A DNA stretch of 64,000 nucleotides from Actinomycetota bacterium (GCA_040905525.1 JBBDRJ010000018.1:88769-152768); one strand, 5' to 3'. Counted from the first letter of the stretch, positions 56,523 to 61,158 are shown. Made by a program: numbers and translations. The notes: generated from the sequence alone by a model not told the origin.

Positions 56523-57293
56523 ATGTGCTACGAGACGACGGCGCGACCGCCGGCCCCGCCCATCCAGGGTGGTGCGGCGACGGGGGAGTCGATAACGCTT
56601 AAAGCCTCGGACGGAAACGAGTTCGCCGCCTTCAGCGCGAAGGCGGCCGATGCGGGCGGCCCGGGGATTGTCGTGCTTCCCGACGTCCGCGGCTTGCACG
56701 CTTTCTACGAGGATCTTGCGCTTAGATTCGCCGAGCAGGGAGTGCATGCCGCGGCGTTCGACTACTTCGGACGAACGGCGGGCGTTGGGCGCCGATCCGA
56801 CGATTTCGATTTCTGGCCCGAGGTCATGAAGACCAAGCCGGACACCGTTGCCCTTGACGTGGCCGCATCGGTCGATCACCTGCGGTCCCCAGCCGGCGGC
56901 GGCGCCACGTCGATCTTCACCGTCGGCTTCTGCTTCGGCGGCGGGAACTCCTTCAATCAAGCCGCGCGCGGGCACGGGCTGTCGGGAGTTGTCGGCTTCT
57001 ACGGACGCGTAGTGCCGCGTGACGAGAGCGACTCGGACGCACCCATCGACAAGGCAGAGCGTTTCGAGTGCCCGGTGCTCGGGCTATTCGGCGGCACCGA
57101 CCAGATGATCACAGCGGACGGCATCGAAGCCTTCGGCAAAGCTCTGGACGCCGCCGGTGTGGCCAAGGAGCTCAAGATCTACGACGGAGCGCCGCACTCG
57201 TTCTTCGACCGCGCCTTCGATCAGTTCAAAGCCGAATGCGACGACGCGTGGACGCGGATCCTGGGGTTCATAGAAGCCAACAGCAGCCGTTAG
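56523..57293 (+). CDS. Dienelactone hydrolase family protein
   Basis: 256 aa; alpha/beta fold with nucleophile region GFCFGG. Confidence 0.75.
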   Translation: MCYETTARPPAPPIQGGAATGESITLKASDGNEFAAFSAKAADAGGPGIVVLPDVRGLHAFYEDLALRFAEQGVHAAAFDYFGRTAGVGRRSDDFDFWPEVMKTKPDTVALDVAASVDHLRSPAGGGATSIFTVGFCFGGGNSFNQAARGHGLSGVVGFYGRVVPRDESDSDAPIDKAERFECPVLGLFGGTDQMITADGIEAFGKALDAAGVAKELKIYDGAPHSFFDRAFDQFKAECDDAWTRILGFIEANSSR

Positions 57294-58300
57294 CCGGTTC
57301 GCGCGACTAGTCCGAAGAGCGACTCCCGCGGCACCAGACGCCGCGGTCGCTCGACGCTGAATCCGTTCCTGTCGAATAGCCCGACGGTTTCGTCGAGTGT
57401 GGGCAGGGCGGTGTTTCCTTGTGTATTTCGGAGAACGTTGTCGAAGTGTGTGGCGATTCGCGATCGGCCCTGGACGTAGCTGACAACGACGACCGAACCA
57501 CCCGGCGCAAGAAGCTCGCGAAGAATGAATATCAGCTTCGTGCGCTGAGCATCCTCGAAGTAGTACAGGTTGTGAAAGAGAGTGATCATCTCGAAGAGTC
57601 CACCGAGTTCATGCGGCGGATCGAGGATGTTGGCTGTGACAACCCGCACGCCGCTGATGCCCCACTCCTTCAGATTTCGAACGGCCAGATCGGTTGCCGC
57701 TTCGTGCATGTCGACACCGACCGCTTGGACGTCCGACAGGGCTTTGGCCGCGCAGCGCAGGTAGATGCCGGAGCCGCACCCGATGTCGAGGAGAGATGCG
57801 GGACGCGAGTCCTTCAAGCAGCGATCAAGGAAAGCAAGGGTTGGGGCCTCGAGGATCCGCGACGACCTGGCAACGATGTCTCCGGTCTCGTCGAGGTAGT
57901 TGCCGAGAGGCGCACCCCGAAGTCTGTCGCGGACGGTTCCGTACGCCGCGCCGTGATAGCTGAAACACTCTTGGATCTGAGCGAAGTATGCGTCGCCGAT
58001 GTCGCTGACGAGAGCCCGTGCCCGCCGTCCTCGAAGACGATATCGACCATCCTTGATTGCGATCTCGCGCCACGCGATGCCCTCAGCCAATAAGCCATCG
58101 AGCAACTCGGTTCTCGTTACGCCGAGGTCTGTGACGAGCTCTTTTCGCGTGCGTGGTGTGCGGAGCGCGTGTAGCAAGCCGCTGTCAGTCGCTCCGAGAA
58201 GGAACAACGCGCGCGAGGCCGGGTACAGATCGAGCATTACAAACGTTCGGCCGATCAGGTGGCCTCCTCTGATGAAGCGTCTCAGCGCTTGGAGCCACAT
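57290..58300 (-). CDS. Class I SAM-dependent methyltransferase (O-methyltransferase-like)
   Basis: ORF 57290..58819; start moved to Met at 58300 (MWLQALRRF...); SAM motif LLDIGCGSGIY preceded by a dimerisation/winged-helix-like region. Confidence 0.7.
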   Translation of the reverse strand: MWLQALRRFIRGGHLIGRTFVMLDLYPASRALFLLGATDSGLLHALRTPRTRKELVTDLGVTRTELLDGLLAEGIAWREIAIKDGRYRLRGRRARALVSDIGDAYFAQIQECFSYHGAAYGTVRDRLRGAPLGNYLDETGDIVARSSRILEAPTLAFLDRCLKDSRPASLLDIGCGSGIYLRCAAKALSDVQAVGVDMHEAATDLAVRNLKEWGISGVRVVTANILDPPHELGGLFEMITLFHNLYYFEDAQRTKLIFILRELLAPGGSVVVVSYVQGRSRIATHFDNVLRNTQGNTALPTLDETVGLFDRNGFSVERPRRLVPRESLFGLVARTG

Positions 58301-58345
58301 GAGGCAAGGGTACGCTGGGGGCCGATCAGGGAATCGAGGTATTTG

Positions 58346-59764
58346 ATGCGCTCCTTCCTCGTTGGTGGTCGGCATGAGACGGGCACCGACTCTCGTGCAG
58401 TGCGCAATCCGTACTCCGGCGAGCCTGTCGATGAGGTCGCCGTTGCGTCGTGGGACGACGTGGATCATGCCCTTAGCGTGGCGACCGACGTCTTCGAGTC
58501 GACGCGTAGGCAGAGCGCCTTCGATCGTTCGAAGGTGCTTCTGGCCGCCGCCGGCGCGATCCGCATGCGCGCGGAAGAGCTGACCCGACTGATCGTGGCC
58601 GAGGGAGGTAAGCCCTACAAGAACGCGAAGGTCGAGGTCGCCCGCGCTGCTTCGACGTTGACGTGGGCGGGTGAGGAGGCCAAGCGATACACCGGCGAGC
58701 TCGTCCGCCTCGACACCGAGGAGACGGCGCGCGGACGTCTCGGCCTGGTGCGGCGCTTCCCACTGGGAGTCGTGCTCGGGATCGCGCCGTTCAACTTCCC
58801 TCTCAACCTCGTTTGTCACAAGGTGGGACCCGCGTTGGCCGTAGGCAATCCGATCGTCGTGAAGCCTGCGTCGTCCACGCCGCTAACTGCCATCGCATTG
58901 GGCGAGATCCTCGTGGAAGCGGGAGCCGGCGAAGCTGTCTCGGTGATCACGTGCACGCCGGAGGACGCCGAGCGGGCGGCGCAGGACGATCGGGTAGCGA
59001 AGATCTCGTTCACAGGTTCGACGGACGTCGGTTGGAAGCTGAAGGGACTGGTGCCGCGCAAGAAGGTCACGTTGGAGCTCGGCGGGAACGCGGCGGTCAT
59101 CATCGAGCCCGACGCCGACCTCGGTCATGCCGCCGAGCGCGTGGCTTACGGCGGCTTCTATCAAGCCGGGCAGTCGTGCATCTCCGTGCAGCGCGTGCTC
59201 GTGCACGAGGCGATCGCGGAAACCTTCTGCTCCAGGCTCGCGCCCTTGGTCGAGGCGCTTGTGGTCGGCGACCCGGCGAACGAGGACACCGATGTGGGTC
59301 CGTTGATCGACGAAGCGGCACTCGATCGGGTCGATGCCTGGGTGAAGGAGGCCCTGGATGCGGGCGCGCGCGCGCTGTGCGGCGCGAAGCGAGAAGACCC
59401 GTGCTACCTGCCGACCGTCCTCACCGACGTTCGTGAGGACATGAAGGTCTCGTGCATGGAGGTGTTCGGCCCGGTCGTGACCGTTCAGCCGTACAGGACT
59501 TTCGACGACGCACTACGGATGGCCAACGACTCCGATTACGGGTTGCAGGGTGGTGTTTTCACCAACGACATCGAGAAGGTCTTTCGCGCGCAGCGCGAAT
59601 GGCGCGTAGGTGGCCTTATCCACAACGACGTATCGGCCTTCCGGGCCGATCAGATGCCCTACGGCGGCGTGAAAGCGTCTGGCTACGGCCGCGAAGGACT
59701 TCGCTACGCGATGGACGAGATGTCCGAGACGCGGATCCTGGTGTTGTCCGGTCTGGATCTCTAG
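58346..59764 (+). CDS. Aldehyde dehydrogenase family protein
   Basis: ORF 58259..59764; start ATG 58346 after GAGG; ALDH motifs ELGGNAA and catalytic-Cys region GQSCIS. Confidence 0.85.
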   Translation: MRSFLVGGRHETGTDSRAVRNPYSGEPVDEVAVASWDDVDHALSVATDVFESTRRQSAFDRSKVLLAAAGAIRMRAEELTRLIVAEGGKPYKNAKVEVARAASTLTWAGEEAKRYTGELVRLDTEETARGRLGLVRRFPLGVVLGIAPFNFPLNLVCHKVGPALAVGNPIVVKPASSTPLTAIALGEILVEAGAGEAVSVITCTPEDAERAAQDDRVAKISFTGSTDVGWKLKGLVPRKKVTLELGGNAAVIIEPDADLGHAAERVAYGGFYQAGQSCISVQRVLVHEAIAETFCSRLAPLVEALVVGDPANEDTDVGPLIDEAALDRVDAWVKEALDAGARALCGAKREDPCYLPTVLTDVREDMKVSCMEVFGPVVTVQPYRTFDDALRMANDSDYGLQGGVFTNDIEKVFRAQREWRVGGLIHNDVSAFRADQMPYGGVKASGYGREGLRYAMDEMSETRILVLSGLDL

Positions 59765-60450
59765 GACTTCACGAGACGCGGACGGCGCGGCGGGAGCTCG
59801 ACGTTCGGTGCCAACGCCTTGTACAGCAGCTGCTTGGCCCCCTCGACGAGTCGATCAAGGTCTTCGGGCTCCGAGTAGCAAAGGCAGGCTGCGATGTTGT
59901 CCCGGATCGCCGCCGTCACGAGTCGAGCGGTCATCTCCGGGTCCTCGGTATGCACGAGGCCGAATTCGGCTCCGGTGTTAAAGGCGCTTGTGATCAGCGC
60001 GAGGTAGTCACGCTCGAGCTCCAACGCTTCCCGAACCAGATCGGGGCTCGGGCTCTGACGAACGACAACCTCGACGGCGTCCCGGTGCTGGGTGTGGTAG
60101 TCGACGACGGCGTTGAAGATGTCGTCGATGATGTCGCGATAGTCGACCGGCTTCCCGGCCTCGAGGTTCTCGATCGCGTCGGCCACGATGTTGGCCACGG
60201 CGTCGGTCAATCCCTGCATGAAGTCGCGCTTCAGGGCGAGCAGCAGATGCTCTTTGGATTGGAAGTAGAGGTAGATCGTTCCCTTGGCGACCCCGGCCGC
60301 GTTGGCGACCTCCTCCATTGTCGTCTCGTGAAAGCTCTTCGAGCTGAACAGACCCAGAGCCGCCTCGAGGATCTCGGCGCGGCGTTGCTCGCTGGGCTTG
60401 ACCACCCGGCGCTTCAATACGGACGAAACGGCGTCCCGTACCGACTCCAC
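59761..60450 (-). CDS. TetR/AcrR family transcriptional regulator
   Basis: ORF 59761..60588 (TTG); likely start at an internal GTG near 60450-60456 preceded by GGGG; HTH ETTMEEVANAAGVAKGTIYLYFQSKEHLL. Confidence 0.75.
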   Translation of the reverse strand: MESVRDAVSSVLKRRVVKPSEQRRAEILEAALGLFSSKSFHETTMEEVANAAGVAKGTIYLYFQSKEHLLLALKRDFMQGLTDAVANIVADAIENLEAGKPVDYRDIIDDIFNAVVDYHTQHRDAVEVVVRQSPSPDLVREALELERDYLALITSAFNTGAEFGLVHTEDPEMTARLVTAAIRDNIAACLCYSEPEDLDRLVEGAKQLLYKALAPNVELPPRRPRLVKS

Positions 60451-60584
60451 TTGCACCCCTGAAAGGAAGAAGTGACCTGAAGTCAGAATCGTAGCACCCC
60501 GTTCTCGAATGCACAAGGACATGTAAATGCCCTGTTCAGGGCGATTTGATGGTCCTTCACCGATCCCGAACCGGACGCTCTTGA

Positions 60585-60632
60585 CCAATGACTAACGGTC
60601 GGTCATACTACTGACTGACCGTTAGTCATCGG
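60585..60632. promoter_or_regulatory. Palindromic operator-like site (21-bp imperfect inverted repeat arms, 6-bp spacer)
   Basis: ccaatgactaacggtcggtca-tactac-tgactgaccgttagtcatcgg; core 12-bp arms TGACTAACGGTC / GACCGTTAGTCA are perfect reverse complements; between the TetR gene and divergent gene 60678. Confidence 0.6.
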
Positions 60633-60677
60633 ACCTAGAGGGCGAGCCATCCGGCTGGCCCGAGAAAGGAGGCCGAA

Positions 60678-61091
60678 ATGACGCGGGCAACCAGGACAGG
60701 ACTACAGACCCCGGCCTCCCGGGTCGAAAAGGTGCTCCCCAGGCAGCTCGTGGTGGAGCCGGCAACCCTTGAGATCGGAGCGGCCATCGACGAGGGCGTC
60801 CCGCCCGACCGCAGCGTGCGCTACAACGCCCGCTGGTCACAGCGCGGAGCCGCGGGTTCAGCACGCGTCGAGATCCGACCGACTTCGAAGGTGACAACCG
60901 ACATCGTCGTCGAGCTTTCGCGCGCCACCGGCCCGTGGGCTCTTCTGTGGAGCAAGCCACGCCGCTACCGGCTTGCCTCGCTCTTCGCCCAAGCACTCGG
61001 CTACCACGCCGAGACGCGATCCGGCGAGGACGCCCACGGATTCGAGGTCAGAAGGACGACGCCCGAGCTCGTGAGGGCCCGCAGCGCCTAA
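60678..61091 (+). CDS. Hypothetical protein
   Basis: 137 aa; strong RBS AAGGAGG 7 nt upstream of ATG; divergent from the TetR gene; no motif recognised. Confidence 0.5.
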   Translation: MTRATRTGLQTPASRVEKVLPRQLVVEPATLEIGAAIDEGVPPDRSVRYNARWSQRGAAGSARVEIRPTSKVTTDIVVELSRATGPWALLWSKPRRYRLASLFAQALGYHAETRSGEDAHGFEVRRTTPELVRARSA

Positions 61092-61120
61092 GTCCCCAAA
61101 GCCCCCTCCCCGCAACGAAA

Positions 61121-61158
61121 GAAGAGGCCCCACCCCGGGGCCTCTTCTTCTTTTCGGG
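61121..61158. terminator. Bidirectional intrinsic terminator between convergent genes
   Basis: 11-bp GC-rich perfect stem gaagaggcccc / ggggcctcttc with 5-nt loop, followed by a T-rich tract on the plus strand and preceded by an A-rich tract (T-rich on minus). Confidence 0.6.

Follow-up and report, generated by a model that had tools for sequence, protein, structure and literature searches.

A conserved pair of composite TGAC/GTCA sites, probably a TetR operator, before a divergent START-like gene in uncultured Actinomycetota

The intergenic region and its two promoters

The window is a stretch of 64,000 nucleotides from the metagenome-assembled genome of an uncultured Actinomycetota bacterium (GCA_040905525.1, JBBDRJ010000018.1:88769-152768). 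It contains a TetR-family regulator gene on the minus strand and a divergent gene of 137 amino acids on the plus strand, separated by a gap of 227 bp. Within this gap lies a long dyad. The features of the locus are collected in Table 1. We number all positions from the first letter of the window.

Table 1. Features of the TetR/START-like locus and the basis of each assignment
Feature	Position	Strand	Basis
TetR-family regulator gene, 229 aa, FadR/PfmR-like	59761-60450	-	Pfam, homologues, predicted fold
O3, single 13-bp site TGAC-N5-GTCA	60473-60485	.	2 nt downstream of the TetR -10 box
-10 hexamer TACGAT of the TetR promoter (ATCGTA on the plus strand)	60488-60493	-	conserved TAnnnT, 17 nt after the -35 box
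Octamer TTCGAGAA (TTCTCGAA on the plus strand), in the spacer of the TetR promoter	60502-60509	.	nearly invariant in 16 loci
-35 hexamer TTGTGC of the TetR promoter (GCACAA on the plus strand)	60511-60516	-	CTTGTGC invariant in 16 loci, also in L098
-35 hexamer TTGACC of the small-gene promoter	60581-60586	+	promoter scan
Dyad, 21-nt arms and 6-nt spacer	60585-60632	.	inverted-repeat search, shuffles
Promoter-proximal 17-bp unit TGAC-TAAC-G-GTCG-GTCA	60589-60605	.	conserved tetramers
-10 hexamer CATACT of the small-gene promoter	60604-60609	+	promoter scan; CATAMT-like in relatives at the same place
Spacer TACTAC	60606-60611	.	contains most of the -10 hexamer
Promoter-distal 17-bp unit TGAC-TGAC-C-GTTA-GTCA	60612-60628	.	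motif search and alignment
Ribosome-binding site GAAAGGAGG	60664-60672	+	five bases before ATG, read from sequence
137-aa target gene, predicted START/SRPBCC (CoxG-like) fold	60678-61091	+	AlphaFold2 and Foldseek
G+C-rich hairpin (AAGAAGAGGCCCC / GGGGCCTCTTCTT)	61119-61154	.	T-rich tails on both strands; scan flags the minus strand

The sequence-only reading had described a 48-bp dyad with 21-bp arms, two mismatches and a 6-bp spacer, placed between the TetR gene and a 137-aa gene with a strong ribosome-binding site. This anatomy was recovered in full. The arms are CCAATGACTAACGGTCGGTCA (60585-60605) and TGACTGACCGTTAGTCATCGG (60612-60632). They are complementary at 19 of 21 positions (90%) and lie 6 nt apart. 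The dyad ranks best among the short-range inverted repeats of the window. None of 100 dinucleotide-preserving shuffles of the window reached at least 19/21 with a spacer of 20 nt or less; the maximum was 18. The position of the dyad in the gap and the ribosome-binding site of the 137-aa gene were confirmed as well. In most relatives, AAAGGAGG is found at the latter place.

The dyad consists of two 17-bp units, inverted with respect to each other. Each unit is an imperfect palindrome that follows the plan [TGAC][TnnC]N[GTCR][GTCA]. With these doubled tetramers, a unit amounts to two overlapping TGAC-N5-GTCA palindromes offset by 4 bp. More precisely, one register is perfect (TGAC-N5-GTCR) and the other is half-degenerate (TnnC-N5-GTCA). 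The proximal unit has one mismatch to the idealised TGACYGACNGTCRGTCA, and the distal unit includes an exact TGAC-N5-GTCA at 60616-60628.

A consensus promoter scan of the region gives a single promoter-like site, on the plus strand, with the form TTGACC-17 nt-CATACT (chance expectation 0.1). Here and below, promoter boxes and transcription starts are consensus predictions; the starts fall near 60616 on the plus strand and near 60481 on the minus strand. The proximal unit occupies the space between the -35 and -10 boxes of this promoter. The distal unit begins 2 nt past the -10 box and spans the predicted transcription start. The predicted mRNA leader of the small gene (60616-60680, plus strand) folds somewhat better than its shuffles (z = -2.9), and the ribosome-binding site is partly paired in it.

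The TetR gene has a promoter of its own. We considered a TetR promoter within the dyad and rejected it: the minus-strand TAGTAT found there has no conserved -35 box, and a better conserved promoter adjoins the TetR gene. The latter is part of a conserved block that borders the TetR start, some 100 bp away from the dyad, and that is present in the 16 aligned orthologous loci and in L098. The block reads CTTGTGC, 17 nt, TAnnnT, and then a single TGAC-N5-GTCA within 0-2 nt. At this last position, which we call O3, the exact 13-mer occurs in 15 of the 16 aligned loci; it is absent in L097, and L098 shows one mismatch. The 64 kb contain only two exact copies of TGAC-N5-GTCA, O3 and the one in the distal unit, and both are in the 227-bp gap. 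Judging from its sequence and position, O3 is probably the autoregulatory operator of the TetR gene. With a promoter of its own and a single site apart from the dyad, this gene is probably not autoregulated through the latter. A distance of about 65 bp separates the two promoters, which stand back to back without overlap.

A second regulator may bind the octamer located between the two boxes of the TetR promoter. This octamer is the core of a 14-bp palindrome, GCATTC-nn-GAATGC, in two of the loci, L003 and L096.

At its other end, the small gene is separated from a convergent acyl-CoA dehydrogenase gene by the G+C-rich hairpin. By its sequence, this hairpin is likely a bidirectional terminator, which would make the small gene monocistronic. 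Elsewhere in the window, a methyltransferase ORF (57290-58819, minus strand) and an aldehyde dehydrogenase ORF (58259-59764, plus strand) overlap by about 560 nt. The orthologous aldehyde dehydrogenase has 472 aa. The long N-terminal extensions of both overlapping ORFs are therefore probably not translated.

Conservation of the sites and of the gene pair

We compared 18 distinct orthologous loci with a TetR identity of 59-95%. They come from metagenome-assembled genomes (MAGs) of uncultured Actinomycetota and from metagenome assemblies. The conserved core of the dyad is its inner 40 bp (60589-60628), present in 17 of the 18 loci and still seen at 60% TetR identity. The four pairs outside it (CCAA/TCGG) are peculiar to this genome, with no conservation in the relatives.

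All the TGAC, GTC and GTCA tetramers are invariant in an alignment of 15 loci, and L098 matches them too. Between the tetramers, five bases vary, and their changes often break the complementarity of the arms. Arm positions 6 to 9 are complementary in 5, 11, 8 and 10 of the 15 loci, respectively, and the four most variable arm pairs have 24 of 60 cells unpaired. The arms score 0.038 in a covariation test; the shuffles average 0.059, and 479 of the 500 are equal or higher. Fixed tetramers with uncompensated variation between them fit a protein-binding site, not a hairpin.

Arm position 13 (60601 and 60616) is never Watson-Crick complementary in the 15 loci. It forms G-U in 12 of them and is unpaired in three. 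The bases are A/G in the group of the window and G/A in all other loci. In consequence, every dyad combines one GTCAGTCA unit with one GTCGGTCA unit. A simple symmetric-dimer model leaves this mismatch unaccounted for. The dyad spacer is also asymmetric, and it is partly conserved (nnAnTA in the TetR orientation).

The -35 box of the small-gene promoter accompanies the core. Twelve of 15 listed loci have TTGAC here, at a distance of 2-3 nt from the proximal unit. The hexamer is TTGCGC in L002 and L094 and TTGCCA in L098, and L003 has no -35 box left.

In most loci, a homologue of the small protein (130-141 aa) is divergent from the TetR gene, with the dyad before the homologue. Each related locus has one dyad, always in the same place relative to the START-like gene. 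The longest contigs of the START-like homologues and of the TetR orthologues are repeatedly equal (for example 13048, 9074, 4684, 14511, 29593 and 8420), which indicates a conserved gene pair.

Natural variants separate the parts of this arrangement. In L003, some 2 kb of inserted DNA with three genes parts the START-like gene from TetR. Here the dyad still directly precedes the START-like gene, at a distance of 2 kb from TetR, which retains the single site. The spacer of this dyad has 10 nt instead of 6 nt, and the tetramers are unchanged. Besides a BTAD-domain gene, the inserted region (L003 1539-4001) holds two ORFs, of 87 and 208 aa. L099 has neither the START-like gene nor the dyad, and upstream of TetR it keeps one TGAC-N5-GTCA. 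L092 (2547-2892) keeps the dyad with a decayed START-like gene; a remnant, RIRVEVRPS, is readable in one frame, and the gap contains a G+C-rich hairpin. The START-like gene of L002 (3368-3760) is frameshifted, and homologous sequence goes on in other frames. These frameshifts may be a long-read assembly error rather than a sign of a pseudogene.

The idea of one long operator shared by both genes has to be given up on this evidence. Instead, the -10 box of the target lies between two 17-bp composite sites in inverted arrangement, and L003 separates the target module from the TetR module. The small gene thus keeps the pair of sites and the regulator keeps O3.

The acyl-CoA dehydrogenase gene had been taken as a hint of a lipid-related effector. 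Apart from the window, only its closest relative, L001, has this gene beside the pair; the other loci with gene calls lack it. Searches of the 64-kb window with the 13-mer and the 17-mer gave no site before this gene or before the aldehyde dehydrogenase gene. A neighbour that is not conserved and has no site says little about a lipid effector, and we discarded it as an effector clue.

A search for further copies of the half-site had been suggested as a check by the sequence-only reading. Within the 64-kb window there are none, the exact matches are the two arms only, and the dyad is on this count not a dispersed repeat. Likewise, only the two arms match well when the idealised 17-mer and the half-site are searched in the 64 kb, and the search gave no local regulon other than the two genes.

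Outside the orthologous loci, we looked at distant TetR genes. A metagenome scan with the TetR alignment and general patterns returned mostly distant TetR genes, together with three orthologues, and the distant loci served as a control set. This set comprises 77 loci (273 kb) with 25-55% TetR identity, found via the recognition-helix peptide AGVAKGT[IV]Y. The part from -200 to +30 relative to the TetR start (17 kb in all) holds 8 copies of TGAC-N5-GTCA, and the other 255 kb hold 9. It means that the 13-mer is enriched about 13-fold near distant TetR starts. Of the 9 remote copies, six are parts of the complete dyads of L015 and L016, and another two immediately precede a shorter TetR start. 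The 13-mer is carried by 9 of the 77 loci, and several of the loci with it come from low-GC organisms. L088 (320-380) and L068 (2440-2490) show the same -35/site/-10/site layout, and full dyads are present in L015 (1060-1116) and L016 (950-1010). The TetR genes of these four loci have 30-45% identity. The neighbours in L068 are an MMPL transporter gene and ChsH2-like and thiolase-like genes. A literature search on the literal motif strings gave no relevant paper.

The regulator and its target

The start of the TetR gene is most likely the GTG at 60450, the position at which the close homologues begin (122 proteins of 229-240 aa); a comparison with orthologues of 229-233 aa points to it as well. 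A longer ORF, up to 60588, was discarded as an artefact of ORF listing on the same ground. Residue numbers below follow the alignment, which uses the 231-aa reading with GTG at 60456.

The regulator matches TetR_N of Pfam (PF00440, E = 9e-19), plus TetR_C_15 and TetR_C_24. Its best NCBIfam match is Bacillus-type FadR (NF053878), with 70.5 bits against a cut-off of 200. Below this equivalog cut-off, the regulator is FadR-like, not FadR. Its helix-turn-helix is closest to that of B. subtilis FadR. The full-length phmmer matches in the PDB are Bacillus FadR (entries 5gpa, 5gp9, 1vi0 and 3whb) and DarR, with E about 1e-11. The AlphaFold2 model is all-helical (pLDDT 87.5). Foldseek gives 489 PDB matches at E <=0.001 for this model, and the best 50 of the 489 are TetR-family proteins. 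The nearest folds are FadR of Bacillus and of Thermus (the latter solved with acyl-CoA), PfmR (3vpr) and DarR. TMt is 0.83 for 5gpc_B, the DNA-bound FadR, 0.80 for 3whb, and about 0.7 for 3anp and 3ang.

The conservation of this protein is unusually high, with 80-95% identity across many MAGs. A basic N-terminal arm is kept (residues 1-20; S11, L14, K15 and R17 are invariant). The C-terminal tail (residues 215-231) is rich in proline and arginine and includes ELPPRRPRLV. Both segments, which the model shows as disordered, may serve for contacts with DNA or a partner.

The 137-aa protein has no Pfam or NCBIfam match at E <=0.01. Its family consists of 35 homologues, all unnamed and all without Pfam domains, and the protein alignment is conserved across loci. 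The AlphaFold2 model (pLDDT 85) has six strands and a long helix at residues 93-114, as in the helix-grip fold. The top Foldseek matches all belong to START, CoxG or Bet v 1 folds, with TM about 0.5 and a best E of 9e-4. They include 2pcs, CoxG (8uds, 2ns9), Sulfolobus STK_08120 with myristate, and the START protein MSMEG_0129.

A probable operator, its alternatives and related systems

We propose that the dyad is the operator of the neighbouring TetR protein and that this protein represses the 137-aa gene. We give this reading a probability of about 0.8. Binding by TetR is inferred from the linkage of genes and sites, from the enrichment of the motif near related TetR genes, and from published TetR proteins that read the same half-site. 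The sequence-only reading had proposed an autoregulated TetR operator that also controls the divergent target. The part concerning the target holds: the dyad lies over the target promoter, it goes with the gene in 17 of the 18 loci, and its 13-mer recurs by distant TetR genes. The part concerning autoregulation probably does not, and this role would belong to the separate site at 60473-60485.

The proposed mechanism is as follows. Without effector, the repressor would sit on both units, and RNA polymerase would be blocked. A small hydrophobic effector would bind the repressor, which would then leave the DNA, and the START-like gene would be transcribed as a single-gene message. Each unit might hold one strong and one weaker dimer. 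The single TGAC-N5-GTCA after the TetR -10 box would give a weaker and independent autoregulation.

Several rival explanations have to be weighed against this proposal. The sites could be bound by another regulator from elsewhere in the genome, such as a BldD-like protein, with the TetR gene as a mere neighbour. TGAC-N5-GTCA is a subset of the degenerate 13-bp box of Streptomyces BldD, TNAC(N)5GTNA (PMC4151990), the host is an actinobacterium, and the pairing of the TetR protein with the sites is deduced from sequence. However, BldD is not a TetR protein, and the likeness is one of resemblance only. Across the 18 loci, the single site goes with the TetR gene and the dyad goes with the TetR-adjacent gene. 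Besides, the 13-mer is enriched by distant TetR genes across phyla, including those of low-GC organisms, and BldD is not expected outside actinomycetes. The TGAC...GTCA sites bound by Thermus TetR proteins (PMC7022988) also argue against it, and so do the doubled tetramers, a design of a TetR (FadR) operator and not of a single BldD box. We regard a regulator of this kind as improbable.

Even less probable is that the palindrome works as a nucleic-acid structure, either an RNA stem-loop (leader or terminator) or a DNA cruciform. As RNA, the 48-mer folds very stably (-31.8 and -32.6 kcal/mol for the two strands, z about -10 and -9). But no T run follows the dyad, the terminator scan gives no flag there, and an Rfam search of the gap returned only noise (E 0.6-0.9, far below the gathering scores). 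The covariation below the shuffled mean, the unpaired cells of the variable arm pairs, the non-complementary position 13 and the longer spacer of L003 with the same tetramers all go against a conserved stem. In addition, the predicted transcription start is inside the dyad, so the mRNA would hold one arm only. A mobile or repetitive palindrome (MITE or REP-like) that landed in the gap is the least credible explanation, with almost no weight. Such elements are typically long, near-perfect intergenic palindromes, as this one is. Nevertheless, a landed element does not agree with a half-site found nowhere else in the 64 kb, with one copy per related locus at a fixed place before the START-like gene, or with a position conserved down to 60% TetR identity.

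Returning to the TetR operator, its finer points are of lower probability. Two dimers per 17-bp unit are a reasonable guess, because the FadR and DarR operators share the construction of the unit; by this analogy we consider it possible, at somewhat below even odds. A hydrophobic or acyl-CoA effector is plausible given the FadR/PfmR-like fold of the regulator and the START-like fold of the target. The regulator is far below the FadR equivalog cut-off, and so an acyl-CoA-like effector is a guess, which we hold a little more doubtfully than the two dimers. According to the models, a hydrophobic-ligand carrier under a FadR-like repressor would make a coherent, if unproven, picture.

A broader scheme is unlikely, although we find it worth stating. 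The 40-bp core could scaffold up to four TetR dimers, two on each 17-bp unit, around the -10 box, perhaps with help from the N-terminal arm and the C-terminal tail. TGAC-N5-GTCA would then mark a FadR-like subfamily across phyla, whose actinobacterial branch serves a START-like small-molecule carrier not described before. If this were true, the carrier could itself take part in the sensing or delivery of the effector.

The locus offers a testable regulatory unit for a lineage known from metagenomes only. It has a conserved TetR protein, a probable motif (TGAC-N5-GTCA) and a dedicated target family, START-like and unannotated. The motif could predict the regulon in complete genomes of the group and in distant TetR relatives that share the recognition helix. 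The compact -35/site/-10/site layout could become a reusable inducible promoter once the effector is known.

Among the known systems, two mycobacterial regulators were considered as matches. One is DarR (mycobacteria and Rhodococcus), which occupies its operator as a dimer of dimers; one of the four half-sites there is imperfect (PMC10636190). DarR has a similar TetR fold, and the units described here likewise have one degenerate tetramer. Its operator, ATACT-N4-AGTAT, is unrelated in sequence, and we rejected it as a match; DarR responds to c-di-AMP or cAMP (PMC10636190). Ms6564 of M. smegmatis was rejected too, as its motif ACGAGACG-N3-CGTCTCGT is unrelated.

The half-sites themselves are known from Thermus thermophilus. 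SbtR (TTHA0167) has the site TGACYrnnyRGTCA, and the sites of PfmR (TTHB023) include CTGACTGACCGGTCAT (PMC7022988). Both share the TGAC/GTCA half-sites with our locus, and the PfmR site CTGACTGACCGGTCAT also has a doubled TGAC. However, SbtR has a spacing of N6, and the three sites of the gap and those of the relatives have N5. Moreover, the Thermus examples are single sites, whereas here an inverted pair of composite sites is found. The regulator of the window has about 20% sequence identity with the solved PfmR structure.

The closest relative in protein and in operator design is FadR of Bacillus (YsiA; 5GPC), which has the nearest solved fold and the nearest helix-turn-helix. FadR of B. halodurans recognises two pseudo-inverted repeats, shifted by 4 bp against each other, and does so as a dimer of dimers (PMC5397183). 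Its operator GATGAATGAATACTCATTCAT has doubled tetramers with this 4-bp offset, and each 17-bp unit of the dyad has the same design. The location of the site in the promoter is shared too, as would be the action by repression, which we infer in our case. The half-site differs, being TGAC here and TGAA(T) in FadR. Unlike in FadR, two units are arranged here as an inverted pair around the -10 box, and no beta-oxidation gene of the window carries a site.

Finally, the general layout recalls TetR of Tn10. The gene of that regulator is divergent from its target, and tetO1 and tetO2, in the gap between them, overlap promoter elements. These operators serve the overlapping divergent promoters of both genes. 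In the present locus, too, a TetR gene and its probable target diverge, and the gap holds two probable operators over promoter elements. On the other hand, its promoters are back to back, the pair of sites would serve the target only, and the regulator has a third site for itself. The current understanding of TetR regulation is not challenged by this arrangement, and the system belongs to a well-known kind.
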